Shown here piece by piece: positions 2,755-54,139 of a stretch of 64,000 nucleotides of DNA. The position numbers were made by a program, and so were the translations under genes. Position 1 is the first letter of the stretch, and every line of letters begins with the position of its first letter. Origin of the DNA: Escherichia phage TH12; sequence record MT446390.1; one strand, written 5' to 3'. The notes under the pieces were generated by a model. It searched no databases, was not told where the DNA came from, and was given only the letters and a program-made list of their open reading frames with translations.

Positions 2755-3117
2755 ATGAAAGCATATCAAATTCTTGAAGGCACACACAAAGGCACTATTT
2801 ATTTTGAAGACGGTACTCAAGCCCGGATTATTGTCTCTAAGACTTTTAAAGAAGACGCTATTGTAGACCCGGAAATTTTCTACGGTTTGAATGCCCGTGA
2901 AATTGAAATTGAACATCAACCTAAAGTTAAAATTGAAGGTGGTCAACACCTGAACGTTAATGTTCTGCGTCGTGAAACTCTGGAAGATGCAGTTAAGCAT
3001 CCAGAAAAATATCCGCAGTTGACCATCCGTGTATCCGGTTATGCAGTTCGCTTTAACTCTCTGACTCCGGAACAGCAGCGTGACGTTATCGCTCGTACCT
3101 TTACTGAGAGTCTATAA
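2755..3117 (+). CDS. GrcA/YfiD-like autonomous glycyl-radical cofactor protein
   Basis: C-terminal [60 protein letters not shown] carries the RVSGY glycyl-radical motif and matches recalled E. coli GrcA/PFL C-terminus; segment is GC-richer than flanks. Confidence 0.85.
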
Positions 3118-4419: not shown

Positions 4420-4962
4420 ATGAGAAAAGCACTACTCGCTGGTCTATTTGCTCTTTCGTTATCAGCACATAGCTCCGAGCATACTTTTAGTAATGTCCAA
4501 CTCGATAACTTGAATTATGCTTATCAGTTTGGGGAACAGTTTTCTAAGGACGGAAAATTTAAAACGCATGAAAATATGCATAAGAAAGGACTTGGATACA
4601 TAATGGCCGCAATACTATGGCAAGAATCATCCGCAGGTATTAATCTTAAAGATAAGAAAGGTCACCATGCGTATGGAATGTTCCAAAACTATCTACCAAC
4701 AATGAGGGCAAGAATTAACCAGCTTGGTTATAATATGACTGATGCCCAAATTAAGAAAATGCTATCTAAGCGGTCTAATTCAGCAAGATGGGCTTATATC
4801 GAATTTTCTTATTGGTTAAATATACATAACGGGGATATAAGAAAAGCTATATCCTCATATAATGCGGGATGGAAGACAAGTGCTGGAAGTAAATATGCTT
4901 CTGAAGTCCTAGAAAAGGCTAATTACCTTAAATCAAATAAACTACTGGAAATAAAAGAATGA
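4420..4962 (+). CDS. Secreted SLT-domain lytic transglycosylase-like protein
   Basis: N-terminal signal peptide MRKALLAGLFALSLSAHS; SLT motifs ILWQESS...GMFQ and YNAG. Confidence 0.75.
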   Translation: MRKALLAGLFALSLSAHSSEHTFSNVQLDNLNYAYQFGEQFSKDGKFKTHENMHKKGLGYIMAAILWQESSAGINLKDKKGHHAYGMFQNYLPTMRARINQLGYNMTDAQIKKMLSKRSNSARWAYIEFSYWLNIHNGDIRKAISSYNAGWKTSAGSKYASEVLEKANYLKSNKLLEIKE

Positions 4963-5306
4963 CCAAAATGTTGGCTTTAATAGTTAGCTTGGTTTCATTT
5001 AACGCTCTTGCTAATACTACATATACTGATGTAACGGAGTATACAAACAGAACGGCGTCTGATTATTGTGGTAAAAGTCAAGAGTGTAAAGTAGATTTTT
5101 CACAAAAATTGTTATATGCGTATAAAGACGGAGAAAAAGATGGGGCGTCTAGTAGGTTCAAGGCGTCTACTTTAATTAAAAGATACTATAAAAAATGGCA
5201 AATATTAGAATGCTCGGTGGCGGAACCTAAAGATAAGGCAGCATGCAATTCTATGGTGGACCGTCTAGTTGACTCTTATACTAGAGGACTTGTAGCAAGT
5301 GATTAA
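4959..5306 (+). CDS. Small secreted protein (signal peptide, 115 aa)
   Basis: ATGA overlap with upstream stop; N-terminus MLALIVSLVSFNALANT is signal-peptide-like. Confidence 0.6.
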   Translation: MTKMLALIVSLVSFNALANTTYTDVTEYTNRTASDYCGKSQECKVDFSQKLLYAYKDGEKDGASSRFKASTLIKRYYKKWQILECSVAEPKDKAACNSMVDRLVDSYTRGLVASD

Positions 5307-5766
5307 AAACTATATCAAGGGCGATATTGTCGCCCTGTTTTCTAAAGGTAATAATATTGCTCATGGGTGCAATTGTTTTCATACAATGGGTGCCGGTGTA
5401 GCAGGTCAATTGGCAAAGGCTTATCCAAAAATTTTAGAAGCCGATAAACTTCAAACCGAATTCGGAGACGAGACTAAACTCGGGACTTATTCGGTTTATG
5501 AAAAATATTTTAAGACCCATAAAGCTTATTGCTTTAATCTTTATACACAGTTTGAGCCGGGACCTAATTTTGAGTACTCTGCTTTAATGAATTGTATAAT
5601 AGAATTAAATGAATTCGGAAAAAATAAGATAACAAAGCCTGTAATTTATATGCCAAGAATTGGTGCAGGTATTGGTGGTGGAAACTGGGATGTCATCGAA
5701 GAGATTTTAGATACGTATTCCACTAAACTAGAAATTGTGATTGTTGATTGGGAACCATTGTTATGA
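5299..5766 (+). CDS. Macro-domain (ADP-ribose-binding/hydrolase-like) protein
   Basis: GDI...IAHGCNC...MGAGVAGQLAK and C-terminal PRIGAGIGGGNW resemble macro-domain glycine-rich loops; 155 aa. Confidence 0.65.
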   Translation: MIKNYIKGDIVALFSKGNNIAHGCNCFHTMGAGVAGQLAKAYPKILEADKLQTEFGDETKLGTYSVYEKYFKTHKAYCFNLYTQFEPGPNFEYSALMNCIIELNEFGKNKITKPVIYMPRIGAGIGGGNWDVIEEILDTYSTKLEIVIVDWEPLL

Positions 5767-5969
5767 GCCAAACAAAAATTCTTACAGGTGCTAAATGCGA
5801 AAAATGCGAATGGCCTGTAGTTTTTGCTTTATGCAATGACGAAATGGCTTGTGATTTTGATTATTGGTGTTACTGTTCGAACAAAGGTTGTAGCAATCAT
5901 AAAGGTGAAGGGTTTTACTCAGGATTTTACCCTTACCCAGATTTCGTTAAAGAAGGTGAACCTAAATGA
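5763..5969 (+). CDS. Cys-rich small protein (68 aa)
   Basis: ATG 5763 overlaps upstream stop (ATGA); CEKCEW...CNDEMACDF...CYCSNKGC. Confidence 0.5.
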   Translation: MSQTKILTGAKCEKCEWPVVFALCNDEMACDFDYWCYCSNKGCSNHKGEGFYSGFYPYPDFVKEGEPK

Positions 5970-6991: not shown

Positions 6992-7294
6992 ATGGCCTTA
7001 AGAGCGATAGCTGTCATGGCGATGCTGGGGTTTTTTGCAGCAACAACTCCTATCGTTGGTACTGCACATATTGACCCATATTTTGATAACTTTATGGAAT
7101 CAGGGATTAAAAACGTATATACTTTGTTTGAAATTCAAAATGTCGAGAATTCTGAAAAATTCTATAAGTATATGGCAAAGCATTACAAAAATAGCCCCTG
7201 TGATGATGCATTTGAATGTCATGAACAAGGCATAAAAACTGCCAGACAATTTGCTGAGTTCATGAAAATAAAATTAGAGCCTACATCTATCTAA
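6992..7294 (+). CDS. Hypothetical protein with hydrophobic N-terminus (100 aa)
   Basis: SD CAGGAGG upstream; N-terminus MALRAIAVMAMLGFFAATTPIVG is signal/TM-like. Confidence 0.55.
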   Translation: MALRAIAVMAMLGFFAATTPIVGTAHIDPYFDNFMESGIKNVYTLFEIQNVENSEKFYKYMAKHYKNSPCDDAFECHEQGIKTARQFAEFMKIKLEPTSI

Positions 7295-7301
7295 TTTACT
7301 A

Positions 7302-7330
7302 GCCCCTTCCTTATGGTTGGGGCTTTTTGG
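7302..7330 (+). terminator. Putative intrinsic terminator
   Basis: agcccc...ggggct hairpin followed by ttttt. Confidence 0.5.
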
Positions 7331-7339
7331 CATTTAACA

Positions 7340-7368
7340 GTTTACTTCTCCTTGAGATGTGTTATAGT
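7340..7368 (+). promoter_or_regulatory. T4-type early promoter
   Basis: gtttac 7340-7345, 17-bp spacer, tatagt 7363-7368. Confidence 0.6.
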
Positions 7369-7395
7369 AGTCCTTACTTACTAGAGGAGAACGTT

Positions 7396-7575
7396 ATGAC
7401 ACGTAAAGAAAAGATTTCTAAGTTGATGTTTTTGATTGAAGAGTACGCTAATGCGGTATCTGATTGGGAAAATGCTCATGGTTGCGAAGATGGAGACATC
7501 GACATTAACAGGGCTATGAAAAAGATGGCCGACGCTCACACCGAATTGCAAATGTATGTTAACGAGATTATGTGA
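7396..7575 (+). CDS. Hypothetical protein (59 aa)
   Basis: Internal ATG (MTRKEK) after SD AGAGGAG; track start 7327 lies in promoter region. Confidence 0.5.
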   Translation: MTRKEKISKLMFLIEEYANAVSDWENAHGCEDGDIDINRAMKKMADAHTELQMYVNEIM

Positions 7576-7582
7576 GGATATT

Positions 7583-7789
7583 ATGCTTTACGATTATACT
7601 GGAAAATCTGAAGACGGTGTACTTGAACTTTTACCTGAAAGCGCTGAAGATGATGATATGGTGGTGATGTTTTGTAAAAATGGCCCTGGGGATAAGGGAT
7701 GGATTTATCTTCGCCAAGAAAATGACCTAATTGTTTTAGACCCTAAACAAGTTGAAGAACTTTATCAACATTTAAAACACAATCGGTAG
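7583..7789 (+). CDS. Hypothetical acidic protein (68 aa)
   Basis: ATG 7583 after GAGGA; alternative ATG 7556. Confidence 0.5.
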   Translation: MLYDYTGKSEDGVLELLPESAEDDDMVVMFCKNGPGDKGWIYLRQENDLIVLDPKQVEELYQHLKHNR

Positions 7790-7829
7790 TTTACATCTTG
7801 GTAGGACTATGTTATAGTAGTCCTACCAA
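7789..7829 (+). promoter_or_regulatory. T4-type early promoter with 11-bp inverted repeat flanking the -10
   Basis: gtttac 7789-7794, tatagt 7813-7818; arms ttggtaggact 7798-7808 / agtcctaccaa 7819-7829. Confidence 0.6.
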
Positions 7830-7846
7830 AACAAACGGAGAACAAA

Positions 7847-7957
7847 ATGAAACTTTTGCTTATCGCTTATGTTGTAGTACAATACAATTATCCGATGTTT
7901 ACTTATAACATGGTAAACGGCATAGTGAATCTTATTGAAACGAGTATGGTAAAATGA
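7847..7957 (+). CDS. Small ORF (36 aa), uncertain
   Basis: ATG after SD-like ACGGAG; below ORF-track cutoff; stop overlaps next ATG (ATGA). Confidence 0.3.
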   Translation: MKLLLIAYVVVQYNYPMFTYNMVNGIVNLIETSMVK

Positions 7958-17692: not shown

Positions 17693-18166
17693 ATGTTATT
17701 ATCTGGCAAATTATACAAAGAAGAAAAACAAAAATTTTATGATGCACAGAACGGTAAGTGTCCTATTTGCCACCGTGAATTAGACCCTGATGTTCAAGGT
17801 AACCATCTTGACCACGACCACGAGTTAAACGGGCCAAAAGCCGGTAGAGTTCGTGGATTACTCTGTAATCTGTGCAACGCAGCAGAAGGCCAAATGAAGC
17901 ATAAGTTCAACCGTTCTGGTCTTAAAGGTCAAAACGTTGATTACCTCGAATGGCTTGAAGCTCTTCTTGCTTATTTGAAACAAGATTATTCTGATAATAA
18001 TATCCATCCTAATTTTGTTCCAGACAAAACTAAAGAGTTCTCAAGACTAGGTAAAGAGGAAATGATGGCTGAGATGCTTCAAAGAGGATTTGAATATACT
18101 GAATCTGATACTAAAACACAATTAATAGCTTCATTCAAAAAGCAGCTTAGAAAGAGTTTAAAATGA
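17693..18166 (+). CDS. 49: Endonuclease VII (Holliday-junction resolvase)
   Basis: MLLSGKLYKEEKQKFYDAQNGKCPICHREL...HLDHDHELNGPKAG...LCNLCN matches T4 gp49; 157 aa. Confidence 0.95.
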   Translation: MLLSGKLYKEEKQKFYDAQNGKCPICHRELDPDVQGNHLDHDHELNGPKAGRVRGLLCNLCNAAEGQMKHKFNRSGLKGQNVDYLEWLEALLAYLKQDYSDNNIHPNFVPDKTKEFSRLGKEEMMAEMLQRGFEYTESDTKTQLIASFKKQLRKSLK

Positions 18167-19980
18167 AAATTGAAAAAGAAATTGAAGGATTAATTTATAA
18201 AACTAATAAAGATCTTTTGAACGAGAATGCTAATAAAGATTCTCGTGTTTTTCCAACTCAACGGGACCTTATGGCTGGTATTGTGTCTAAGCACATTGCC
18301 AAAAATATGGTCCCGTCTTTTATTATGAATGCGCATGAAAGCGGAATCATTCATATGCATGATATTGATTATTCTCCTGCTCTTCCGTTTACTAATTGTT
18401 GTTTAGTCGATTTAAAGGGGATGCTTGAGAATGGATTTAAATTAGGCAATGCTCAAATTGAAACGCCTAAATCGATTGGTGTTGCTACTGCAATTATGGC
18501 ACAAATTACTGCACAAGTTGCTTCCCATCAGTATGGCGGAACTACATTTGCGAATGTCGATAAAGTTCTTTCTCCTTATGTTAAACGTACATACGCTAAA
18601 CATGTTGAAGATGCAGAAAAATGGCAAATACCAGACATTCTGAATTATGCTCAATCTAAAACAGAAAAAGACGTATACGATGCATTCCAAGCTTATGAAT
18701 ATGAGGTAAATACTCTTTTTAGTTCAAACGGTCAAACGCCTTTTGTAACAATTACATTTGGTACTGGAACTGATTGGACCGAACGAATGATTCAGAAAGC
18801 AATTCTGAAAAATCGGATTAAAGGTCTCGGTCGTGATGGAATAACTCCTATTTTTCCTAAACTTGTTATGTTTGTTGAAGAAGGTGTTAATCTTTATAAA
18901 GATGATCCGAACTATGATATTAAACAACTTGCGTTAGAATGTGCAAGCAAAAGAATGTATCCTGACATTATTTCGGTTAAGAATAATAAAGCTATTACTG
19001 GTTCTTCAGTTCCAGTTTCTCCAATGGGTTGCCGTAGTTTCTTGAGTGTATGGAAAGATTCGACTGGTAATGAAATTCTTGATGGACGTAATAATCTCGG
19101 TGTTGTAACACTGAATCTTCCTCGCATCGCGTTAGATTCTTATATTGGAACACAGTTCAATGAACAGAAATTTGTTGAGCTATTTAATGAACGAATGGAT
19201 CTGTGCTTTGAAGCCTTGATGTGTAGAATTAGTTCCTTAAAAGGAGTTAAAGCGACTGTTGCTCCTATTCTTTACCAAGAAGGTGCATTCGGGGTTCGTC
19301 TTAAACCTGATGACGACATAATTGAGTTATTTAAAAACGGTAGAAGTTCAGTGTCTTTAGGATACATTGGTATTCACGAATTGAATATTCTTGTCGGACG
19401 TGATATTGGACAAGAAATTTTAACTAAAATGAATGCTCATCTTAAACAGTGGACCGAAAGAACTGGATTTGCTTTTAGCTTATATTCTACTCCTGCTGAA
19501 AACCTTTGTTATCGCTTCTGTAAACTTGATACAGAAAAATATGGAAGTGTAAAAGATGTCACTGATAAAGGCTGGTACACTAACAGTTTCCATGTTTCAG
19601 TAGAAGAAAATATTACTCCGTTTGAAAAGATTTCTCGTGAAGCCCCATATCATTTCATTGCGACAGGCGGTCACATTTCTTATGTTGAACTTCCTGATAT
19701 GAAAAATAACCTAAAAGGTCTTGAGGCTGTATGGGATTATGCTGCACAACATTTAGATTATTTTGGTGTTAATATGCCAGTAGATAAATGTTTTACATGT
19801 GGAAGTACTCATGAAATGACTCCTACTGAAAATGGATTTGTTTGTTCAGTTTGCGGAGAAACTGATCCTAAAAAGATGAACACTATAAGAAGGACCTGCG
19901 GTTATTTGGGAAATCCGAACGAGCGCGGATTTAATCTAGGCAAAAATAAAGAAATCATGCATAGGGTTAAACACCAATGA
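18163..19980 (+). CDS. nrdD: Anaerobic ribonucleoside-triphosphate reductase
   Basis: 605 aa; C-terminal glycyl-radical motif RRTCGYLG and zinc-ribbon CFTCGS...CSVCGE. Confidence 0.95.
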   Translation: MKIEKEIEGLIYKTNKDLLNENANKDSRVFPTQRDLMAGIVSKHIAKNMVPSFIMNAHESGIIHMHDIDYSPALPFTNCCLVDLKGMLENGFKLGNAQIETPKSIGVATAIMAQITAQVASHQYGGTTFANVDKVLSPYVKRTYAKHVEDAEKWQIPDILNYAQSKTEKDVYDAFQAYEYEVNTLFSSNGQTPFVTITFGTGTDWTERMIQKAILKNRIKGLGRDGITPIFPKLVMFVEEGVNLYKDDPNYDIKQLALECASKRMYPDIISVKNNKAITGSSVPVSPMGCRSFLSVWKDSTGNEILDGRNNLGVVTLNLPRIALDSYIGTQFNEQKFVELFNERMDLCFEALMCRISSLKGVKATVAPILYQEGAFGVRLKPDDDIIELFKNGRSSVSLGYIGIHELNILVGRDIGQEILTKMNAHLKQWTERTGFAFSLYSTPAENLCYRFCKLDTEKYGSVKDVTDKGWYTNSFHVSVEENITPFEKISREAPYHFIATGGHISYVELPDMKNNLKGLEAVWDYAAQHLDYFGVNMPVDKCFTCGSTHEMTPTENGFVCSVCGETDPKKMNTIRRTCGYLGNPNERGFNLGKNKEIMHRVKHQ

Positions 19981-20447
19981 ATTATGATAGATTTTATCCT
20001 TGCGATTTTGTGAATGGTCCTGGTTGTAGGGTCGTTCTTTTCGTTACGGGGTGTTTGCATAAATGCGAAGGGTGTTATAATAAATCAACATGGAATGCTA
20101 GAAATGGTATTCCATTCACTGGTGAAACACTAGAACAATTAATTGAATGTTTGAATAATTATTATATAGAAGGATTAACTATAACCGGAGGAGACCCTCT
20201 CTATCCTGATAACCGAGATGTTATTCATTACATTGTTCAAACAGTAAAAAATCTTTATCCCAATAAAAGCATTTGGTTGTGGACAGGATATAAGTTTGAA
20301 GATATTAAACAGCTAGAAATGCTTAAATATGTTGATGTTATTATTGATGGGAAGTATGAGAAAAATCTTCCGACCAAAAAGCTGTGGCGAGGATCAGATA
20401 ATCAGCGACTTTGGTCAAATACCGATGGGGTGTGGAAACATGATTAA
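19977..20447 (+). CDS. nrdG: Anaerobic RNR activating enzyme (radical SAM)
   Basis: ATGA overlap with nrdD; radical-SAM cysteine triad GCLHKCEGCYN; 156 aa. Confidence 0.9.
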   Translation: MNYDRFYPCDFVNGPGCRVVLFVTGCLHKCEGCYNKSTWNARNGIPFTGETLEQLIECLNNYYIEGLTITGGDPLYPDNRDVIHYIVQTVKNLYPNKSIWLWTGYKFEDIKQLEMLKYVDVIIDGKYEKNLPTKKLWRGSDNQRLWSNTDGVWKHD

Positions 20448-32240: not shown

Positions 32241-34952
32241 ATGAAAGAATTTTACTTAACGGTTGAACAGATTGGTGATTCAATTTTTGAACGTTACATC
32301 GATTCTAATGGCCGTGAACGTACTCGTGAAGTAGAATATAAACCATCGTTGTTTGCACATTGTCCAGAAAGTCAGGCTACTAAATATTTCGATATCTACG
32401 GTAAACCTTGTACTCGTAAGTTGTTCGCTAATATGCGTGATGCCTCCCAATGGATTAAACGCATGGAAGATATCGGACTTGAAGCACTTGGCATGGACGA
32501 TTTCAAATTGGCGTATTTGTCTGACACTTATAACTATGAAATCAAATACGACCATACAAAAATTCGTGTGGCTAACTTCGACATCGAAGTAACATCTCCG
32601 GATGGGTTCCCTGAGCCGTCACAAGCAAAACATCCGATTGATGCTATCACCCATTATGACTCAATTGACGACAGGTTCTACGTATTTGATCTATTGAATT
32701 CTCCGTATGGTAATGTAGAAGAATGGTCTATCGAAATTGCGGCTAAGCTTCAAGAACAAGGCGGTGATGAAGTTCCATCTGAAATTATCGATAAAATCAT
32801 TTATATGCCATTCGATAACGAAAAAGAATTGTTGATGGAATATCTCAACTTCTGGCAACAGAAAACTCCTGTCATTTTGACTGGATGGAACGTTGAGTCA
32901 TTTGATATTCCATATGTGTATAACCGAATCAAGAATATTTTTGGCGAATCTACTGCGAAACGTTTATCACCACATCGTAAAACTCGTGTTAAAGTTATCG
33001 AAAACATGTATGGTTCTCGTGAAATCATTACATTGTTCGGTATCTCTGTTCTTGATTACATTGACCTTTACAAAAAATTCTCTTTTACCAATCAACCGTC
33101 GTATTCTCTGGATTACATTTCAGAATTTGAATTGAACGTTGGTAAACTGAAATATGACGGCCCTATTTCTAAGCTTCGTGAAAGCAATCACCAACGATAT
33201 ATAAGCTATAACATCATCGACGTGTATCGTGTATTGCAAATTGATGCTAAGCGCCAGTTCATCAACTTGAGTTTGGACATGGGTTATTATGCTAAGATAC
33301 AGATTCAATCTGTGTTTAGCCCAATTAAAACATGGGATGCTATTATTTTTAATAGCCTTAAAGAGCAGAACAAGGTGATTCCACAAGGTCGTTCTCACCC
33401 GGTTCAACCTTATCCTGGCGCTTTTGTTAAGGAACCTATTCCAAATCGATACAAATATGTAATGAGTTTCGACCTTACATCTCTGTATCCAAGTATTATT
33501 CGCCAAGTGAATATTAGCCCAGAAACAATAGCAGGAACGTTTAAAGTAGCTCCATTGCATGATTATATTAACGCAATCGCTGAACGTCCTTCAGATGTGT
33601 ACAGTTGCTCCCCTAACGGCATGATGTATTATAAAGACCGTGATGGTGTAGTTCCAACTGAAATCACTAAGGTCTTTAATCAACGTAAAGAACATAAAGG
33701 TTACATGCTTGCAGCTCAACGTAATGGTGAAATAATTAAAGAGGCATTGCATAATCCTAATCTTTCTGTTGACGAACCATTAGATGTTGATTATCGTTTC
33801 GACTTCACTGATGAGATTAAAGAAAAGATTAAAAAGTTGTCTGCTAAATCTCTTAATGAAATGTTGTTTAGAGCTCAACGTACTGAAGTTGCAGGTATGA
33901 CTGCACAGATTAACCGTAAATTGCTCATCAACTCACTTTATGGTGCACTTGGCAACGTTTGGTTCCGTTATTATGATTTGCGTAATGCTACTGCAATCAC
34001 AACATTTGGTCAAATGGCTTTACAATGGATTGAACGTAAAGTTAATGAATATCTGAACGAAGTTTGTGGTACAGAAGGTGAAGCTTTCGTTCTTTATGGT
34101 GATACAGACTCTATTTACGTATCTGCAGATAAAATTATTGATAAGGTTGGTGAATCTAAATTCCGTGATACCAACCATTGGGTAGACTTCTTAGATAAGT
34201 TCGCACGTGAACGTATGGAACCAGCTATTGATAAAGGTTTCCGTGAAATGTGTGAATACATGAACAATAAACAACACTTAATGTTCATGGACCGAGAAGC
34301 TATCGCTGGTCCTCCGCTTGGTTCTAAAGGTATTGGCGGATTCTGGACTGGTAAGAAACGTTATGCATTAAACGTGTGGGATATGGAAGGAACCAGATAC
34401 GCTGAGCCTAAACTCAAAATCATGGGTCTCGAAACACAGAAATCTTCGACCCCTAAAGCAGTACAGAAAGCTCTTAAAGAATGTATTCGCCGTATGCTTC
34501 AAGAAGGTGAAGAATCATTACAAGAATATTTTAAAGAGTTTGAAAAAGAATTCCGTCAATTGAATTATATTAGCATCGCGTCGGTATCTTCTGCGAATAA
34601 CATTGCTAAATATGACGTTGGTGGATTCCCTGGTCCTAAATGTCCGTTCCATATTCGTGGAATTCTGACATATAACCGAGCTATCAAAGGTAATATTGAT
34701 GCTCCACAAGTTGTAGAAGGCGAAAAGGTATACGTTCTGCCTTTACGTGATGGAAACCCGTTCGGTGATAAATGTATCGCATGGCCTTCTGGTACTGAAA
34801 TCACAGATTTAATTAAAGACGACGTACTTCATTGGATGGACTACACTGTTCTCCTTGAGAAGACATTTATTAAACCACTTGAAGGATTCACATCAGCAGC
34901 GAAACTCGATTACGAGAAGAAAGCATCTCTGTTCGATATGTTCGATTTTTGA
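32241..34952 (+). CDS. 43: DNA polymerase (family B) gp43
   Basis: 903 aa; N-terminus MKEFYLTVEQIGDSIFERYIDSNGRERTREVEYKPSLF matches recalled RB69 gp43; exo FDIEV, pol motifs DxxSLYPS and YGDTDS. Confidence 0.98.
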   Translation: MKEFYLTVEQIGDSIFERYIDSNGRERTREVEYKPSLFAHCPESQATKYFDIYGKPCTRKLFANMRDASQWIKRMEDIGLEALGMDDFKLAYLSDTYNYEIKYDHTKIRVANFDIEVTSPDGFPEPSQAKHPIDAITHYDSIDDRFYVFDLLNSPYGNVEEWSIEIAAKLQEQGGDEVPSEIIDKIIYMPFDNEKELLMEYLNFWQQKTPVILTGWNVESFDIPYVYNRIKNIFGESTAKRLSPHRKTRVKVIENMYGSREIITLFGISVLDYIDLYKKFSFTNQPSYSLDYISEFELNVGKLKYDGPISKLRESNHQRYISYNIIDVYRVLQIDAKRQFINLSLDMGYYAKIQIQSVFSPIKTWDAIIFNSLKEQNKVIPQGRSHPVQPYPGAFVKEPIPNRYKYVMSFDLTSLYPSIIRQVNISPETIAGTFKVAPLHDYINAIAERPSDVYSCSPNGMMYYKDRDGVVPTEITKVFNQRKEHKGYMLAAQRNGEIIKEALHNPNLSVDEPLDVDYRFDFTDEIKEKIKKLSAKSLNEMLFRAQRTEVAGMTAQINRKLLINSLYGALGNVWFRYYDLRNATAITTFGQMALQWIERKVNEYLNEVCGTEGEAFVLYGDTDSIYVSADKIIDKVGESKFRDTNHWVDFLDKFARERMEPAIDKGFREMCEYMNNKQHLMFMDREAIAGPPLGSKGIGGFWTGKKRYALNVWDMEGTRYAEPKLKIMGLETQKSSTPKAVQKALKECIRRMLQEGEESLQEYFKEFEKEFRQLNYISIASVSSANNIAKYDVGGFPGPKCPFHIRGILTYNRAIKGNIDAPQVVEGEKVYVLPLRDGNPFGDKCIAWPSGTEITDLIKDDVLHWMDYTVLLEKTFIKPLEGFTSAAKLDYEKKASLFDMFDF

Positions 34953-34992: not shown

Positions 34993-35628
34993 ATGAAAAC
35001 TACACCAATCACTATCGCTATTGACGCAATCGTAAAACAAGCTTCATCTCTTGCCACTATGGCTAAAGTAATTAGTCAAAACTCTGCCCGATATAATGCT
35101 ATTCTTGAAACTCTTCGTCGCCCTGGACTGAGTAATTATGAAAGCCGAGTAATTATTACAGGTGTTGGTAAGAACGCTAATATCGCAACTAAAGCTTCCG
35201 AGACTTTTGCTTCACTAGGTATTCCTAGCATGTATTTGAACACCGGGCATTATTCTCATGGCGACGCAGGGTTTATTGCACCTAATGATGTATTAGTTCA
35301 CATCAGTCGTTCTGGTAAGACTGAAGAAATGATAGGTGTTGCTAAACATCTTCGTATGATTCGTCCTCAGGTTAAACAGATTCTGTTACATTGTAACCCT
35401 GACATTCCGCAAGAATACGAAGCTCTTTTTGATTATACGTTCTGTACAGGCATCGCGGTAGAGGTTGATGAGAATTCTCTGGCTCCGACCATGTCCACTA
35501 CATTGTTGTTAGCGCTTATCGATACGTTTGCTATCAACCTTTCGTCTGAACGTGGATTTACCTCTAATGACTTCCTTAAGTTCCACCCTGGTGGTGCACT
35601 AGGTGCCATGTTACGAGGCGAACAATGA
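34993..35628 (+). CDS. SIS-domain sugar-phosphate isomerase (arabinose-5-phosphate isomerase-like)
   Basis: SIS motifs ITGVGKNANIATK, SRSGKTEE, HPGGALG; 211 aa. Confidence 0.8.
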   Translation: MKTTPITIAIDAIVKQASSLATMAKVISQNSARYNAILETLRRPGLSNYESRVIITGVGKNANIATKASETFASLGIPSMYLNTGHYSHGDAGFIAPNDVLVHISRSGKTEEMIGVAKHLRMIRPQVKQILLHCNPDIPQEYEALFDYTFCTGIAVEVDENSLAPTMSTTLLLALIDTFAINLSSERGFTSNDFLKFHPGGALGAMLRGEQ

Positions 35629-35809: not shown

Positions 35810-37495
35810 ATGAAAAAAGCTGTTATTCTTGGTGCTGGACTGGCAACTCGTTTGTATCCAATAACGCACCATATTCCTAAGGTGCTTGTTAACTATAAAC
35901 AAGACACTATTCTGAGCAATTTGTATACAATTTATTCTGACCTTGGTGCAGATGAAATTATTGTAGTAGTTCATTCAAAATTTGTTGAAACTGTTCGAGC
36001 TTATTGTGAGCAAGAAGGGTTCAATGTGACTATTCGTACAGTTGATGAAGCGTATGGTTCTGCTTATGCTCTTGCTAAATTATACAAAGATTTAGATGGC
36101 CATAATGTAATTGTTAACTGGTGTGATATTATTCCTGATTTTGGTTCATGGTCTTGGAATGTTAACGCAATCTATGTTAAGGGTGACGAATGTCGATATA
36201 ATTTCGACGGTGAAAATATCACTAGCGTAGGTTCAACAGGTGGTAATGTTGTAGGAATTTATCAGTTCAAAGACTGGGAATTCTATATGGGTTCTACTGA
36301 TGAGGAAATTCATGAATACTGCAAAGGACGTGATTTCGTAGAATTCCTTTACGGCAGCGCATTCAATAAATCAGAGCTTATGAATCTAATTGATTTAGGT
36401 GATATGCCTAAACTTGAAAAAGCTCATGAAGTTCGTGAACTTAATCGTAGTTTTAATGCAGTTGAAATTGGTGAAGAAACTGTAACTAAATTCGCATTAA
36501 CCGAACAGGGCCGAGCTCTTCAGAAAGATGAGATTTCATGGTATCTTAAAGTGAAATCAGATTCAGTTCCTCAGTTAGTTTCTGTTAATGAAAATAACTT
36601 TGAAATGGAACGCATTAAAGGTAAGCCGGCATTTGAATATATTAAATCCAAATCGAGTCTTGCTCGTCCACAAATTGTTGATGCAATTTTAGATGCACTG
36701 AAATTCAGCACAGACACTTATTTTGTAAGTCCTGAAACTGTTCGTCGTGATTTCACTAAAGAATTCTATACGAAAGTTATTGATCGTTGTGAAAGCATTC
36801 AACCATTGATTGATTCATTTGGTAAAATCACACATGTGAACTACACTAAGATTGGACGTCTGAAGCCAATGCTGAAACAAGCTTTAGAACACCTTATTCG
36901 TTATCATAACCGTTCTCAGGGACAGTACTCTGTTATTCATGGTGACCCGAACTTCAGTAATACTATGATTACTGATAACGGCGAAGTCAAGTTTATCGAC
37001 CCTCGTGGATATTTTGGCGAAACCAAGATTTACGGGCCAAAATTGTACGATGAAGCTAAAGTGCTTTATGCTGTTTCAGGTTATGATGAATTCAATGCTA
37101 ATCCGACCTGGGGACAGTTTACTATTGATGAAACAACTTGTAATGTGACTATTAACATCAATCCATTAATTTACAAATATGGAAAGATGAGTTCGTTTAA
37201 CGAGTATCATCATTTGGCGGTGGCAATTATCTGGATTGCATTAGGTGGTTATTTCAAGAATAATCCACTTAAAGCGGTAGCCGCATATTATAAAGGTATG
37301 GAACTTCTGACTAAGCAATTACGCAACATGGGCCGTGTACTTCAAGACGGCTCTATTAGTTATGACGTAGCAGAACCTGTAACGGCTACTCTGATTACAA
37401 AAAATCCTGGTAAATGGGTACTAACTGATAAAGAAACTGGTGTTTCCTATCGTCCAATCGGTGGCGATATCACTCATCAATGGGAACGAATCTAA
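35810..37495 (+). CDS. Bifunctional sugar-1-phosphate nucleotidyltransferase / APH-fold sugar kinase
   Basis: N-term AVILGAGLATRLYPITHHIPKVLV (NDP-sugar pyrophosphorylase G-loop); C-term VIHGDPNFSNTMI...FIDPRG (APH/choline-kinase-type motifs); 561 aa. Confidence 0.75.
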   Translation: MKKAVILGAGLATRLYPITHHIPKVLVNYKQDTILSNLYTIYSDLGADEIIVVVHSKFVETVRAYCEQEGFNVTIRTVDEAYGSAYALAKLYKDLDGHNVIVNWCDIIPDFGSWSWNVNAIYVKGDECRYNFDGENITSVGSTGGNVVGIYQFKDWEFYMGSTDEEIHEYCKGRDFVEFLYGSAFNKSELMNLIDLGDMPKLEKAHEVRELNRSFNAVEIGEETVTKFALTEQGRALQKDEISWYLKVKSDSVPQLVSVNENNFEMERIKGKPAFEYIKSKSSLARPQIVDAILDALKFSTDTYFVSPETVRRDFTKEFYTKVIDRCESIQPLIDSFGKITHVNYTKIGRLKPMLKQALEHLIRYHNRSQGQYSVIHGDPNFSNTMITDNGEVKFIDPRGYFGETKIYGPKLYDEAKVLYAVSGYDEFNANPTWGQFTIDETTCNVTININPLIYKYGKMSSFNEYHHLAVAIIWIALGGYFKNNPLKAVAAYYKGMELLTKQLRNMGRVLQDGSISYDVAEPVTATLITKNPGKWVLTDKETGVSYRPIGGDITHQWERI

Positions 37496-37881
37496 TGCAC
37501 CGTGTAGAAAACATGCTTAATCTTTGTTTTGATGTCGATGATTGTATAACAGAGTGGAATAACAATCGTGATTACGTGAACTTCAAACCAGACGTCGAAA
37601 TGGTGTCTGCCATTAATGCCCTGTATGATGCAGGGCATACCATAACGCTTTACACTGCTCGTGGTATGAAGTCAGTAGGTCCTGGTCGTATAGCAATTGA
37701 CATTCTCCCAAGTCTGATTCAGAACTTGGCAAACATTGGCTTGAAGTACCATAATTTGCTAACACATAAACCAGTATATGATTGGATTATCGACGACAAA
37801 GCTATGCGTCCTGACGAATTCAAAGCTCTTATGAATAAAGGCGAATTCGAAACATTTAAATCGTATAAACCGAATCTATAA
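37495..37881 (+). CDS. HAD-superfamily phosphatase-like protein
   Basis: Motif I FDVDDCIT near N-terminus; TAATG overlap with upstream stop; 128 aa. Confidence 0.65.
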   Translation: MHRVENMLNLCFDVDDCITEWNNNRDYVNFKPDVEMVSAINALYDAGHTITLYTARGMKSVGPGRIAIDILPSLIQNLANIGLKYHNLLTHKPVYDWIIDDKAMRPDEFKALMNKGEFETFKSYKPNL

Positions 37882-37939: not shown

Positions 37940-39100
37940 ATGAATACTTTTAAAATCGGAACGAATTTTGATTTAGCTCTTCTTGATAAAATCGTAGAGC
38001 TCAATAAAACCTATCCTAATAGCTTGATAAACGAAGTATATGGCTCTACAAGAGAAATGGCTTTTGTAGCAGCCAGACCTGATTTTAGGCTTCCTGACGT
38101 TGACAAAAAGATGTTAGAAGACTACGTTAAACGTTGTAACGAATTAGGTATTTGCTTTAACTATACACTCAACACGATAAATCCTGGTTCAAAAAGAGAA
38201 CTAGTTGAGTGGAAGAAGAAAGCTATTCAGGATTATGTTCAGTATCTTTGGTCAATAGGCGTATGGCGTATTACTATCGCTAACCCTGTTGTTATGGAAA
38301 TTGTTCGTGAAGTCAATAAAGATATTGAGATTGAAGTTTCAACAATTCTACATGTCGATGCGGTAACTCAAATCAAATACTTACATGACCAATATAACAT
38401 CAAAAAGGTCTGTTGCGGAATTCATAAGAACCGTTCAGTTTCTTTCCTGAAGCGTGCAGCAGAGTTTTGCAATAAGAACAATATAATATTTGAAGTTCTT
38501 GTAAATGAGTTCTGTTCTAATGCTGGTAAAGGGTATACAACACATTGTAGTTATCGTGACTCTTGCTATATTTTCCATAGTACTGATGTTACAGCTGATG
38601 ATGCTAAATCCTTAAATGGATATCCAATGCAACACTGCATTAAAGCTCGTGATACAGACCCATTTAACTGGTTGAGAACTCGTTTTGTTCGTCCTCAAGA
38701 TTTGAAACTTTATAATGATATTGGTATCACTCAATTCAAAGTTTCAGGACGTACAGGTAGCACAGACTACATTTTGAAAGTTCTTGAAGCATACGCTTCT
38801 GAAAAGTTTGAAGGTAATTTGTTAGAACTGTGGAAGCCTTTAGAGACTATTTTCACTCTTGAAAATGAGACTGAGTTTTCACATACAGTAAATATTGAAA
38901 CCTCTTTGTTAGATGGCTTTTTAGAAAAAAGGTGGTTCAGACATCCAGATTTTGATTGTGCTAATGAAATCTGTGGGTCAACGTGTACATATTGTGAAAG
39001 GTATTATAAACGTCAATTATCTAAAAACGGGTTAGCAGAAAACTCCATATCTATTATTGATATAACTAACTCTGATGACGCTTTGAGGTACCCGGAATGA
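37940..39100 (+). CDS. Cys-rich enzyme, tentatively peptidase-U32-like (Fe-S?)
   Basis: 386 aa; Cys clusters VCCG, EFCSNAGKGYTTHCSYRDSCY, DCANEICGSTCTYC; family call is weak by-eye resemblance only. Confidence 0.6.
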   Translation: MNTFKIGTNFDLALLDKIVELNKTYPNSLINEVYGSTREMAFVAARPDFRLPDVDKKMLEDYVKRCNELGICFNYTLNTINPGSKRELVEWKKKAIQDYVQYLWSIGVWRITIANPVVMEIVREVNKDIEIEVSTILHVDAVTQIKYLHDQYNIKKVCCGIHKNRSVSFLKRAAEFCNKNNIIFEVLVNEFCSNAGKGYTTHCSYRDSCYIFHSTDVTADDAKSLNGYPMQHCIKARDTDPFNWLRTRFVRPQDLKLYNDIGITQFKVSGRTGSTDYILKVLEAYASEKFEGNLLELWKPLETIFTLENETEFSHTVNIETSLLDGFLEKRWFRHPDFDCANEICGSTCTYCERYYKRQLSKNGLAENSISIIDITNSDDALRYPE

Positions 39101-39336
39101 TTTCTAGAAAAAGTTTTAATTATAAACTTAACGAAGAGATTTTGACTATGAAACTGAACACTAACGAACAAATTCTTAAAAAGGCCCTTATGGGCCTGTT
39201 TGAAACCAAAGCGGCTAAAGTGATTAAAGAACCTGTTCAATTGGAATACTACACTGATGCATTCCTTCATAGTGTTCTTGGAAGTATAGATTCTGAAGCT
39301 TTACGTTATATCAACATTGTCAAGAAATTCAAATAA
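39097..39336 (+). CDS. Hypothetical protein (79 aa)
   Basis: ATGA overlap; GAGGT upstream. Confidence 0.5.
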   Translation: MISRKSFNYKLNEEILTMKLNTNEQILKKALMGLFETKAAKVIKEPVQLEYYTDAFLHSVLGSIDSEALRYINIVKKFK

Positions 39337-39378
39337 GCTTTATGAATTGAGTATATAATAAATTGTATTGAGGTAAAT

Positions 39379-40095
39379 ATGGGAAAACATAACACAATGA
39401 AATATATCAAAGCCGCAGATTTTCAAACCGCATTTAAAGCAGTCAATCGTGAAATTTTAGAAAACCCCGAATTCGTAACTGATTCTCGTATTGGACGTTG
39501 TAATGAAATTGGGTCTATGACAGTAGTTGTTGACACTCCATCATCATTCAAAATGACCGACCCACGTATTAACCGCATCTCTTATGAATATGCCGAAGAC
39601 TTCTGGAAGTTTATGATTTCTGGTGGTACCAACGCAGAAGAAGCGTTTAAGGCATATCCTAATGTCGCTAAATTTATTTCTAAACCAAAATCAGATGTTT
39701 TGCCGGCGAACTTCAACACTTTCTATGGTCCTCGCATTGCGGCCCAATTACCAACTCTTCTAAAAGAACTTAAAGAAAAACCTAACTCTCGAAGAGTTGT
39801 GTTCCAAATTCTAGAAAGTTCTGATCAGGCTTTGCTTGATTCGGACGAAACACTTGAATATCCATGTACTGACTCAGTAACTTATTATATTCGTGATGGT
39901 AAGCTTTATACCCACTGTCATATGCGTTCTCAGAACTGTGCTGTTGTTATGCAGTTGGATTTTTATCTCCAAGGAAAATTACTTCATTATATCGCTAACG
40001 AATGTGGTGTAGAAGTTGGTGATTATACTCATACCATGGTAAGTGCCCATGTGTTTGAACGTGATTTTGATTATGTTAAAGGATTCCTTGACTAA
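39379..40095 (+). CDS. 42: dCMP hydroxymethylase homolog (thymidylate-synthase superfamily), divergent
   Basis: KPNSRRVVFQIL vs T4 NPDSRRGIMIY; PCTDSVTYYIRDGK...HMRSQN vs T4 MCTNTVQYLIRDKK...NMRSND; SAHVFERDF vs SLHVYSRHF; 238 aa. Confidence 0.75.
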   Translation: MGKHNTMKYIKAADFQTAFKAVNREILENPEFVTDSRIGRCNEIGSMTVVVDTPSSFKMTDPRINRISYEYAEDFWKFMISGGTNAEEAFKAYPNVAKFISKPKSDVLPANFNTFYGPRIAAQLPTLLKELKEKPNSRRVVFQILESSDQALLDSDETLEYPCTDSVTYYIRDGKLYTHCHMRSQNCAVVMQLDFYLQGKLLHYIANECGVEVGDYTHTMVSAHVFERDFDYVKGFLD

Positions 40096-40994
40096 TGGCT
40101 ATTTTCCGCGTACCAATCTTGAGTATGCGGTCTTATGAAACTGGACAGTATGCTATCCTTAAGGATGGCAACTTCCAACTTCATTTGCACCGTGCTAATC
40201 CGGGTGATGTGATTACATATCCACGTAATGCATCTGATATTAAAGAATGCGAACGTCTTTTCCCAGAATTTAAGTTTGTTCCATTATGGTATAAAGATAA
40301 CGCGTATAACACTCGTAAATATTTCTGGACTGAAAATGAATTTGTGGTTGATTCATTAATTGATTATTATGATTGTGATTTTCTAATCACAGATATCACT
40401 GGTTATGGCGGCGCTTTTGATGTGGAATTCAATTTCAATATCACTGCAGACCCTAATAAACCACGTTTTTATATTGATGAATTCTTAAAAACCGACATGT
40501 TGTCTGTTAATCGTTCACTTCAAACTACTGTGTTGAATGAACGTCAAAAAGGAGTGCTGGTTAACGCAGGTGCAGATGGTAATAAGATTATCGTAACGCA
40601 GAAAGTTATACGTCCTTCCATCATGCAGCGTCTTGTAGGTGATTTGGCTCCTATTCATCTAGATGGTATTTTTCATCCATTTCGAATTAGTGACCCATGT
40701 TATCGTTTTGAACAAGTGGTTGAATGTGCAATTCAATTAGGTCAACCGCTTTATATAACCGATCCAAATAATAGCTTCGACAGAAATAAGTATCCTGAAG
40801 AAGCGCTGATTCGAATTTTTAAACCAACTAAAACTGAGTACTATCAAATTCTTAAAGGACGTCCGAAAATTCAATATTTCGAAAATCCTGAAGAAGTATT
40901 CCATCCAGGTCTTGGTGAGTTCATCTACTTTAATGCTTTAATTTCTTCGCCGTATAATATACCTAAATACGAAGATGTCGTAATCGAGGAATAA
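40095..40994 (+). CDS. Hypothetical protein (299 aa) at the T4 beta-gt position
   Basis: TAATG overlap with 42 homolog; no family recognised. Confidence 0.6.
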   Translation: MAIFRVPILSMRSYETGQYAILKDGNFQLHLHRANPGDVITYPRNASDIKECERLFPEFKFVPLWYKDNAYNTRKYFWTENEFVVDSLIDYYDCDFLITDITGYGGAFDVEFNFNITADPNKPRFYIDEFLKTDMLSVNRSLQTTVLNERQKGVLVNAGADGNKIIVTQKVIRPSIMQRLVGDLAPIHLDGIFHPFRISDPCYRFEQVVECAIQLGQPLYITDPNNSFDRNKYPEEALIRIFKPTKTEYYQILKGRPKIQYFENPEEVFHPGLGEFIYFNALISSPYNIPKYEDVVIEE

Positions 40995-40995
40995 A

Positions 40996-41544
40996 ATGGC
41001 TAAAATTATTTTAGTAGACGGCCCAGATAATGCTGGTAAAACAACTTTCATTAATGACATAATGGAAATTAGTGAAAGATATGTAAAGATTGATTTCCCT
41101 AAACGAACAGTTGATGGACGTTTCGATGTTAAGTCTCGAAATGAAGTTGGTTGTTTCGAAACGATGTTGAATTATTTAGACCCTACTAAGATTTATCTGT
41201 TAGACCGTGGATATATTAGTAACTGGGTTTATGGACGTATTCGACAAGATGCGGACTCGGTTCTTGACGTTTATGAACAGGACTATGTTCGTCTTTGCCA
41301 AAACCATGATGTGTTCACAATTATTTTAACACGTAACGAAATGACTGAAAGTTTTGAAGACGACCTTATTACTTTGTCTTCATTCGGTTTTAATACAGTC
41401 GTTTCACATTTTGAAGAGTTTGCAATTCATAACAAAATCCAAACATATCAATTACTTAATCATGATGGTGCTAACAAAGTTATAGGATTTAATGCAAGCG
41501 AACGTAATTGTTTGATTACAGAAATCATCAAATGGGCTCGTTAA
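40996..41544 (+). CDS. P-loop kinase, thymidylate/dNMP-kinase-like
   Basis: Walker A ILVDGPDNAGKTT; LLDRGYISNWVYGR resembles Tmk DR(Y/H) region; 182 aa. Confidence 0.6.
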   Translation: MAKIILVDGPDNAGKTTFINDIMEISERYVKIDFPKRTVDGRFDVKSRNEVGCFETMLNYLDPTKIYLLDRGYISNWVYGRIRQDADSVLDVYEQDYVRLCQNHDVFTIILTRNEMTESFEDDLITLSSFGFNTVVSHFEEFAIHNKIQTYQLLNHDGANKVIGFNASERNCLITEIIKWAR

Positions 41545-53238: not shown

Positions 53239-53392
53239 CTGAATTAGAATAACCGGATGGAACTCAGAACCATTATAACACATAAAAAATTAAAGCATTT
53301 TATGAAAAAAAGAGTGTACACTACCTGAGGGCATGATATTATAGACTTATCAGCTAAATGACCTTAACGTCCGTAAGACAGAGGAAAATATT

Positions 53393-54139
53393 ATGTTATC
53401 AAATAATAAAATTAACAAAATCAATCGTCGTCTTGACCACACCAGAGCTTCTGCGAAGAGACGCTCTAAGGATTTTAACTTAGACTTTAATTACCTTAAA
53501 AACATTCTTGATCAAAAGGTCTGCGCTTACTCAGGTGAATCTTTCAATAACTCTGTTGAAGGTGAGAAATTATCCTTAGAACGTTTTAATAACGATATCG
53601 GCTACATTAAAGGTAATGTTATCCCAGTTAAGAAAAAATATAACACGGCTCGTTCTGATTTAACATTAGAAGAACTTATTGAGAAACGTGATGCCATTGC
53701 AAGACGTATCGCTAATCCTTCTGCCCGTAAAGTAGAGAAACTTAATCTCGACGAGAAGAAATGGGCCCAAATCAAAAAGGTTTATGGTACTATTTTAAAA
53801 ATCCGAGCAAAACGTGAAAATCGTGTTAAGCATATGGCGAACATGTTGAAAAATCAACCTTTATCTAACGAATCTAAACTTAGAATTGTTGCTTTGAAAG
53901 CACGCATTAATGGCTCACATCAAGCAGAAGGCCATGAACTTACTAAACTCAACGTTCTTCTTAAAGGCTCTGACTGGAAAACTAAAACTAAATTAACCGA
54001 TGCTGAATCGCTTTTCGATACATATGATAAAGTTATCCAAGGTCTGCAACGTTTTGAAAAGATTGGTTTCATTGGTAAATTAAAATTGAAACGTGGCTTA
54101 CCACTTAGCGCATCATTATTCCAACTGATTAAAGGTTAA
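53393..54139 (+). CDS. Basic protein, Srd-like by synteny (248 aa)
   Basis: Between modA and dda as T4 srd; no motif verified. Confidence 0.5.
   Translation: MLSNNKINKINRRLDHTRASAKRRSKDFNLDFNYLKNILDQKVCAYSGESFNNSVEGEKLSLERFNNDIGYIKGNVIPVKKKYNTARSDLTLEELIEKRDAIARRIANPSARKVEKLNLDEKKWAQIKKVYGTILKIRAKRENRVKHMANMLKNQPLSNESKLRIVALKARINGSHQAEGHELTKLNVLLKGSDWKTKTKLTDAESLFDTYDKVIQGLQRFEKIGFIGKLKLKRGLPLSASLFQLIKG

Follow-up and report, generated by a model that had tools for sequence, protein, structure and literature searches.

What does a cysteine-rich protein of the U32 family do in a phage gene cluster devoted to arabinosylated 5-hydroxycytosine? The question is raised by Escherichia phage TH12, of which a stretch of 64,000 nucleotides (sequence record MT446390.1; hereafter the window) was analysed. 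An open reading frame (ORF) of 386 amino acids (37940..39100, plus strand, ATG start) is placed here between the genes for uridine diphosphate (UDP)-arabinose and the gene for a 5-hydroxy-deoxycytidine monophosphate (5-hydroxy-dCMP) synthase. Its product is identical to RB69 gp50 (NP_861740.1) at 383 of 386 residues and is thus the gp50 ortholog, and the surrounding DNA matches many Mosigvirus (RB69-like, T4-type) coliphages at 98-99% identity. From its family, fold, cysteine conservation, gene linkage and distribution we infer an enzyme, probably carrying a [4Fe-4S] cluster, that would hydroxylate C5 of a pyrimidine deoxynucleotide without O2, most likely converting dCMP to 5-hydroxy-dCMP with an oxygen atom taken from prephenate. 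The probability of this reading is put at roughly 0.6.

The ORF encodes a genuine U32-family protein. Peptidase_U32 (PF01136) is the only Pfam domain reported for it and is matched over profile positions 2-192 of 233 with 42.2 bits, against a gathering threshold of 22.4 (E 7.3e-11). An AlphaFold model built from 92 sequences (pLDDT 93.3, pTM 0.91) matches the fold of the solved U32 member Mk0906 (5d88); the other TIM-barrel matches are generic, with the flavin-dependent methylenetetrahydrofolate reductase among the lower ones. The BFVD viral fold library returned the same protein from phage OLB35 together with generic TIM barrels and nothing else, and a sequence search of the PDB found no relative. 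The 13 cysteines make up 3.37% of the protein, as compared with a mean of 1.33% over the 47 plus-strand ORFs of at least 150 amino acids in the window, among which only NrdG ranks higher. They are arranged as C192-x10-C203-x5-C209, C340-x4-C345-x3-C349-x2-C352 and a VCCG motif (C158-C159). Nine of them (C158, C192, C203, C209, C233, C340, C345, C349 and C352) are invariant across 92 homologs, down to 47% identity, and C177 is kept in at least 90% of these, while C66, C72 and C159 are conserved among close phage relatives only. Within the U32 stretch, residues 94-286, the invariant positions also include E190, R206, Y210, H213 and a K267-x2-G270-R271-T272 motif. The clustering of the cysteines is not a matter of chance, and they are under selection.

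A preliminary description of this DNA had given the position and length of the ORF exactly, had remarked on its clustered cysteines and had ventured, as a weak call, the U32 family. The call was right, since the Pfam score exceeds the cut-off, and the confident structural model of the same fold type as Mk0906 agrees with it; a lack of cysteine conservation among homologs, which that description named as evidence to the contrary, is not what the alignment of the 92 sequences reveals. Two of the spacings that it listed need correction, as x9 is x10 (C192-C203) and x5 is x4 (C340-C345), and the VCCG motif stands as described.

The record of RB69 begins gp50 three codons upstream (MQKMNTF). The window has one A more than RB69 in the run that precedes the ATG at 37940, which leaves the upstream ATG (37930) out of frame; the start at 37940 is supported because homologs align from MNTFK. 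In phage record MH992122.1 (OLB35) the gene is annotated as two 'peptidase' coding sequences of 269 and 108 amino acids (BFVD A0A3G3MCS7 and A0A3G3MCT7), and as the DNA is 99.2% identical to the window, the split probably reflects a frameshift or a sequencing error. Such annotations ('peptidase', 'collagenase-like protease', PHROG 'peptidase'), which prevail in GenBank, follow the family name and would make the protein a collagenase-type peptidase. The name is historical, however, the characterised E. coli members are hydroxylation factors and the genomic context has no link to proteolysis, so that a peptidase is very hard to credit.

Among the E. coli U32 proteins, RlhA appears as the nearest characterised relative by profile comparison. 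When the family profile was aligned with the four E. coli members using hhalign, the probabilities were 75.5% for RlhA, 10.8% for TrhP, 3.5% for UbiU and 0.6% for UbiV. The alignment with RlhA (E 2.4e-5) sets phage residues 55-285 on RlhA residues 47-258, and E190, C203 and C209 fall on RlhA E161, C169 and C176. In RlhA (YdcP), C169 and C176 are essential and E161 is nearly so for the formation of 5-hydroxycytidine 2501 (ho5C2501), and the C-terminal C580 and C611 are also needed (PMC5727448). Orthology with UbiU, UbiV or TrhP was rejected because the scores of hhalign and of the NCBIfam UbiU equivalog model (NF047963; 18.5 bits against a cut-off of 440) are too low, and orthology with RlhA was rejected because a protein of 386 residues with PF01136 alone differs from one of about 650 residues that consists of a U32 domain, DUF3656 and a C-terminal cysteine region.

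This relationship could mean that the phage carries its own version of RlhA or TrhP, which would make ho5C in rRNA or 5-hydroxyuridine (ho5U) in tRNA and tune translation during infection; of the U32 members, it is these two for which action on pyrimidine C5 and a need for prephenate are known. Such a function is nevertheless improbable, given that the phage protein has a single U32 domain and a short cysteine tail without the DUF3656 of RlhA or the C-terminal extension of TrhP, that its gene always lies within clusters for DNA precursors or DNA glycosylation, and that the host already owns both RlhA and TrhP.

The recurrent U32 motif CX6CX15CX3/4C supplies four cysteines that bind a [4Fe-4S] cluster (Pelosi 2019, PMC6747719), and UbiU (CX6CX16CX38C) and UbiV also deviate from it (PMC6747719). 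In the phage protein, the counterparts of the RlhA CX6C pair are C203 and C209, which stand x5 apart, and a single cysteine (C233) follows 23 residues on; judged from the alignment, the fourth ligand may be the invariant C192, C177 or C158. Because the canonical motif is only approximated, Fe-S binding is no more than likely, and the predicted cluster is probably of the [4Fe-4S] type. The invariant cysteines near the C-terminus form a candidate second metal or Fe-S site, and a single chain may thus hold two.

The surrounding pathway is known from RB69. Its DNA was first described as carrying arabinosyl-hydroxymethylcytosine (arabosyl-hmC; PMC6024577), which was revised in 2026 to mono- and poly-arabinosylated 5-hydroxycytosine (5hoC; PMC13326640). 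According to the latter study, the thymidylate-synthase homolog gp48 makes 5-hydroxy-dCMP, binds flavin mononucleotide (FMN), takes its oxygen from O2, as determined by 18O2 labelling, and works in E. coli without gp50; AfhE/AfhF-type enzymes account for the conversion of arabinose-5-P to UDP-arabinose, and Acinetobacter phage DLP3 has the same base with a cluster that lacks a U32-type gene (PMC13326640). Since its oxygen derives from O2, the gp48 synthase cannot act in strict anoxia. The preliminary description had rightly placed the U32 gene beside sugar-activation genes, as the isomerase, nucleotidyltransferase/kinase and HAD phosphatase genes lie directly upstream; the neighbour that it took for a pyrimidine hydroxymethylase is in fact a hydroxylase, the ortholog of the gp48 5-hydroxy-dCMP synthase (PMC13326640). 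Its suggestion that the U32 protein adds further base chemistry gains support, in the form of a candidate C5-hydroxylase of dCMP.

The key new evidence is gene linkage, which supports prephenate as the oxygen source indirectly. Prephenate is the oxygen donor of UbiU/UbiV, each of which binds [4Fe-4S] (PMC6747719, PMC10990095), and it is required for TrhP-dependent ho5U34 and RlhA-dependent ho5C2501 (PMC6599085, PMC5727448). Shikimate or prephenate enzymes are found beside genes of the phage U32 clade in three different arrangements. In related Straboviridae, a small gene for an AroQ-type chorismate mutase (Pfam CM_2) overlaps the U32 stop codon; the mutase gene directly follows U32 in Serratia LC53, Enterobacter Entb_45, a Klebsiella phage, Pectobacterium PM2 and Shewanella Thanatos-2, and the phage mutases in this position score 32.8-44.6 bits against a cut-off of 27. 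The U32-mutase pair is intact even in Thanatos-2, whose cluster is rearranged. A tblastn search with one of the phage mutases against 50,697 phage records found 51 records, all of them U32-carrying Straboviridae, from twelve host genera, and among the matches listed every mutase gene adjoins the U32 gene, the thymidylate-synthase-homolog gene or both. In an alignment with PheA and TyrA of E. coli, the phage mutases retain EcCM residues R11, R28, K39, E52, S84 and Q88; D48 and R51 are missing, and nine residues are deleted. The two other arrangements belong to independent, unrelated phages. At locus L030 the gene order is AfhE-like, HAD, isomerase, a fusion of DAHP synthase with CM_2 (112.7 and 67.3 bits; 4931-5959) and, immediately downstream of the fusion, U32; this phage was binned with a Gastranaerophilaceae metagenome-assembled genome (MAG) and has the anti-Thoeris gene Tad3 on board. 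At L010 a DAHP-synthase-like gene (7145-7891) immediately follows U32, with 237 and 216 bits as compared with 63 for KDO8P synthase. The DAHP synthase-like genes of both loci are auxiliary shikimate-pathway genes of uncultured phages. Full-text searches found no paper that ties a phage U32 protein or a phage chorismate mutase to prephenate-dependent hydroxylation of DNA precursors, and the paper on the Thanatos phages is silent on its U32 gene; two papers outside the literature covered, one on phage HY126 and its Afh genes (He et al. 2026, Nat Chem Biol) and one by Mahler et al. (2025, Cell Host Microbe), may already assign the gene.

Homologs at 46-58% identity are numerous in metagenomes, where 1187 cluster representatives were found at E<=1e-3, and nine phage-like loci were compared over 6-10 kb on each side of U32. 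Their neighbours across these loci include DNA polymerase III alpha, UDG, dCMP deaminase, thymidylate-kinase-like proteins, dUTPase, dNK, NT5C and nucleoside deoxyribosyltransferase. In six of the nine, a homolog of the first DNA arabinosyltransferase (RB69 gp46:47) immediately precedes U32, five have the kinase-like gene close by, and locus L013 contains a TET-associated glycosyltransferase (33.9 bits, cut-off 27.5) together with UDP-galactopyranose mutase. A ThyA-family homolog was found at none of the nine loci within these flanks. In the metagenomic phages U32 holds the place of the Straboviridae thymidylate-synthase homolog, beside a glycosyltransferase and a kinase, which is the pattern expected if either enzyme supplies the hydroxylated base. 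Among cellular genomes the U32 clade is rare: a scan of 185,579 species with two peptide patterns found four loci, a lower bound, and all of them are in MAGs (Bacillota, Gastranaerophilaceae, Eubacteriaceae and a Woesearchaeota bin).

The linkage and the metagenomic loci also bear on the proposal that the protein performs no hydroxylation itself and is a redox helper or reductase, which would pass electrons, for instance to the FMN of the 5-hydroxy-dCMP synthase, or reduce a sugar or heterocycle. Table 1 of PMC13326640 labels gp50 a 'sugar or heterocycle reductase', the flavin synthase needs reducing equivalents (PMC13326640), electron transfer has been proposed for U32 Fe-S clusters (PMC6747719, PMC10990095), and methylenetetrahydrofolate reductase occurs among the lower fold matches. 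However, as noted above, the fold matches beyond 5d88 are generic and the synthase is active in E. coli without gp50; a helper would have no thymidylate-synthase homolog to serve at the loci that combine U32 with a glycosyltransferase and a kinase, and it would leave unexplained why three independent arrangements link U32 exclusively to chorismate mutase or DAHP synthase. A redox helper is consequently an unlikely reading, if the least unlikely of those weighed against hydroxylation.

The distribution of the gene also favours an O2-independent hydroxylase. The marker of the arabinose pathway, a 561-residue enzyme, occurs in 368 phage records, 57 of them from Acinetobacter. U32 occurs in 221, and among the matches listed all hosts are Enterobacterales or Shewanella (Escherichia, Klebsiella, Shigella, Serratia, Proteus, Yersinia, Enterobacter, Providencia, Edwardsiella and a few more) and none is Acinetobacter. 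In Acinetobacter phage Maestro, which has the isomerase, AfhE-like, HAD, synthase, glycosyltransferase and kinase genes, HAD and synthase adjoin, without U32 or mutase. No protein of the cluster is better conserved between genera than U32 (82-86% identity vs 41-82% for its neighbours). The window also encodes the anaerobic ribonucleotide reductase NrdD with its activase NrdG, and a 120-residue ORF (2755-3117, plus strand) has a C-terminal glycyl-radical motif like that of GrcA/YfiD and a close relative annotated 'pyruvate formate-lyase'. With NrdD/NrdG and the GrcA-like protein, the phage is already equipped for anoxic hosts.

A role in making or modifying UDP-arabinose, as some annotations state, is suggested by the adjoining isomerase, kinase/uridylyltransferase and phosphatase genes, by one phage record that reads 'putative enzyme involved in UDP-arabinose biosynthesis' and by the arabinose genes that are also present in L010 and L030. 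The Acinetobacter phages DLP3 and Maestro, however, have arabinosylated 5hoC without a U32 gene (PMC13326640), Dhakaviruses have the same arabinose cluster without it, the AfhE/AfhF-type enzymes already cover the route to UDP-arabinose, and several U32 loci (L002, L011, L013, L014 and L026-L028) have no arabinose genes; a function in the sugar pathway is accordingly given little weight, marginally less than one on RNA. Taken together, the competing explanations fail mainly because of the linkage to mutase and DAHP synthase and because there are U32 loci without the synthase homolog or without arabinose genes.

As an O2-independent hydroxylase, the U32 enzyme would be the anaerobic counterpart of the flavin- and O2-dependent 5-hydroxy-dCMP synthase encoded two genes downstream. 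The phage dCTPase would supply dCMP, the base would be oxidised by two electrons at the U32 enzyme, and the electrons would exit through the Fe-S centre or centres to an acceptor. Prephenate would decarboxylate and deliver hydroxide, leaving phenylpyruvate and CO2, as proposed for UbiU/V (PMC10990095); it would come from the phage's own chorismate mutase in related genera and from host PheA/TyrA in Mosigvirus. The phage dNMP kinase and host NDP kinase would then make 5ho-dCTP for replication, and glycosyltransferases would add arabinose on the DNA. In this manner cytosine could be replaced by 5-hydroxycytosine and arabinosylated in a facultatively anaerobic host without oxygen, for example in the gut.

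Several points weigh against this proposal. The homology to RlhA is remote (probability 75%), and the phage spacing C-x5-C-x23-C departs from the canonical motif. Dhakaviruses such as JS10 infect E. coli and carry the arabinose cluster without U32, from which it follows that the gene is dispensable for the modification as such and that the correlation with host lifestyle is imperfect; the absences in Acinetobacter phages may reflect one or a few evolutionary events. A thymidylate-synthase homolog may sit elsewhere on the nine metagenomic genomes. The enzyme could act on DNA instead of on dCMP. A hidden Markov model (HMM) of five phage mutases found no chorismate mutase in the window, so that Mosigviruses would rely on the host enzymes for prephenate. 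Finally, the literature searched contains no biochemical or genetic test of gp50, which PMC13326640 lists only as a predicted reductase.

The best match of the mutase HMM in the window, a 264-residue frame at 53345-54136 on the plus strand (E 0.0095, 13.9 bits), was taken as chance. The small ORF of 79 amino acids that follows U32 is not a mutase either. Its ATG overlaps the U32 stop codon (ATGA), and the two genes are translationally coupled. It belongs to a family with the motif YY-x-DAF-x-HS...RHIN that occurs in 162 phage records, and it is more variable than U32 (89% vs 99% identity to RB69). The idea of a diverged chorismate mutase was rejected, as the ORF has no match to CM_2 or to any other Pfam or NCBIfam model and hhalign gives a probability of 1% against seven phage mutases. 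Furthermore, a homolog and a mutase coexist in Pectobacterium PM2, Yersinia TG1 and Serratia 92A1, in the order U32-orfX-mutase-synthase. The product may be an accessory factor of the U32 enzyme. In Serratia phage LC53 (L005 7158-7265) the annotated mutase has an N-terminal extension of about 36 residues (MRRINHTMNELV...) that resembles the start of orfX in Serratia 92A1 (MNRINHNLNERLV...) and may be an orfX remnant fused to the mutase.

Table 1. Features of the window around the U32-family gene and related to host anoxia
Feature	Position	Strand	Remarks
Anaerobic ribonucleotide reductase NrdD	18163-19980	+	Pfam NRDD 571.6 bits, Gly_radical
NrdG radical-SAM activase	19977-20447	+	
DNA polymerase	32241-34952		upstream border of cluster
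Arabinose-5-phosphate isomerase, RB69 gp55	34993..35628	+	Pfam SIS; 203/211 identical to gp55
Bifunctional nucleotidyltransferase/kinase, RB69 gp52:53, AfhE-like, UDP-arabinose pathway	35810..37495	+	Pfam NTP_transferase + kinase-like; PMC13326640, PMC6024577
HAD-type phosphatase, RB69 gp51, AfhF-like, UDP-arabinose pathway	37480..37881	+	PMC13326640
U32-family protein, RB69 gp50 ortholog, candidate O2-independent pyrimidine C5-hydroxylase	37940..39100	+	386 amino acids
Stretch matched by Pfam U32 model	38219..38797	+	residues 94-286
C-terminal four-Cys cluster, candidate second metal or Fe-S site	38957..38995	+	four Cys invariant, 92 homologs
79-residue ORF, RB69 gp49 ortholog, small conserved putative partner	39097..39336	+	70/79 identical to gp49
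Thymidylate-synthase homolog, FMN/O2-dependent 5-hydroxy-dCMP synthase, RB69 gp48 ortholog	39379..40095	+	Thymidylat_synt 57.2 bits; 235/238 identical
DNA arabinosyltransferase 1 homolog, RB69 gp46:47	40095..40994	+	97% identical to RB69; role per PMC13326640
Thymidylate-kinase-like nucleotide kinase, RB69 gp45	40996..41544	+	98% identical to RB69; PMC13326640 Table 1
UvsX	41643-		downstream border of cluster

With respect to expression, inspection by eye revealed no site of the FNR type ahead of U32. Between 34900 and 41700, neither sigma-70-like nor terminator-like sites exceed the frequency found in shuffled sequence. The 42-nucleotide spacer before the thymidylate-synthase homolog (39337-39378) contains aGCTTTA-N11-TATAAT, which by eye resembles a MotA-dependent middle promoter of T4.

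Some metagenomic loci contain further genes for nucleotide chemistry. A fusion of a guanylate-kinase-like domain with an S-adenosylmethionine (SAM) methyltransferase is found at L031 (3872-5179) and L032 (3946-5214), and at L003 (5912-7156) the methyltransferase alone appears in the Pfam matches; at all three loci it is preceded by a GP88 gene and is the second gene upstream of U32. By analogy with the conversion of ho5U to mo5U in tRNA, these genes could mean that a 5-hydroxypyrimidine nucleotide is O-methylated, giving a 5-methoxy base in DNA. L003 (13227-14360) and L029 (11224-12357) each encode a second U32 paralog that is highly divergent, with a Pfam score of 21.7 bits just below the cut-off; at L003, where the main U32 gene is a few kb away, it adjoins radical SAM/SPASM and nucleoside deoxyribosyltransferase-like genes. 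L002, L014 and L027 likewise have radical SAM/SPASM genes beside U32. Tentatively, the clade of 1187 representatives may as a whole consist of phage-borne, O2-independent deoxynucleotide C5-hydroxylases. Many uncultured phages of anaerobes could obtain the 5-hydroxypyrimidine of their DNA from it alone, and the base would then be glycosylated (GT1-like, TAGT and GLF neighbours) or O-methylated, and some of these phages might feed it prephenate through chorismate mutase or DAHP synthase.

The gene, its family label and the fold match had already been listed for RB69 gp50. If the proposed function is true, a known kind of enzyme would gain a new class of substrate and a new biological setting, and prephenate-dependent U32 hydroxylation would extend from RNA and quinones to DNA precursors. 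Phages with arabinosyl-5-hydroxycytosine are common coliphages and therapy candidates, and the sole known route to 5hoC needs O2 while their hosts live mostly in anoxia; an anaerobic route would explain how this anti-restriction modification is kept up in the gut. The phage chorismate mutase and DAHP synthase would gain a defined role, and the metagenomic relatives point to further, undescribed DNA modifications based on 5-hydroxypyrimidines. In addition, a small soluble nucleotide as substrate could allow the first in vitro reconstitution of U32/prephenate hydroxylation, which makes this single-chain enzyme an attractive system to settle the U32 mechanism.

Among the known systems, RlhA shares with the phage protein a U32 domain with the aligned glutamate and two cysteines, as well as an extra conserved C-terminal cysteine cluster. 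It hydroxylates C5 of cytosine, as is proposed for the phage protein, and depends on prephenate and Fe-S biogenesis (PMC5727448). RlhA differs in being a 653-residue protein with DUF3656 that acts on a ribosomal precursor, whereas the phage protein is a single domain of 386 residues with a presumed deoxynucleotide substrate, and in its C-x6-C-x15-C-x3-C spacing. TrhO and TrhP offer a parallel in which an O2-dependent enzyme and a prephenate-dependent U32 enzyme make the same 5-hydroxypyrimidine, as would the phage pair; both are found in facultative anaerobes, and one occurs alone in strict aerobes (the O2 enzyme) or in anaerobes (U32), a distribution that the phage genes parallel, though imperfectly. 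TrhO, however, is a rhodanese and the phage O2 enzyme a flavin-binding thymidylate-synthase homolog, the substrates differ, and the alignment with TrhP is poor.

UbiU-UbiV, which act with UbiT, are likewise O2-independent members of the U32 family and are the anaerobic counterpart of the flavin mono-oxygenases UbiI/H/F, and each subunit holds its [4Fe-4S] through four cysteines; they differ in forming a heterodimer that acts on a lipid, and the low model and profile scores given above set the phage protein apart from both. The RB69 gp48/HY126 synthase would have the same product, 5-hydroxy-dCMP, within the same cluster and pathway, but is unrelated in fold and cofactor (FMN) and takes its oxygen from O2. 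The solved structure of Mk0906 from Methanopyrus kandleri (PDB 5d88), with 247 residues and 14% identity, shares the fold, but nothing in it corresponds to the final ~100 residues of the phage protein.

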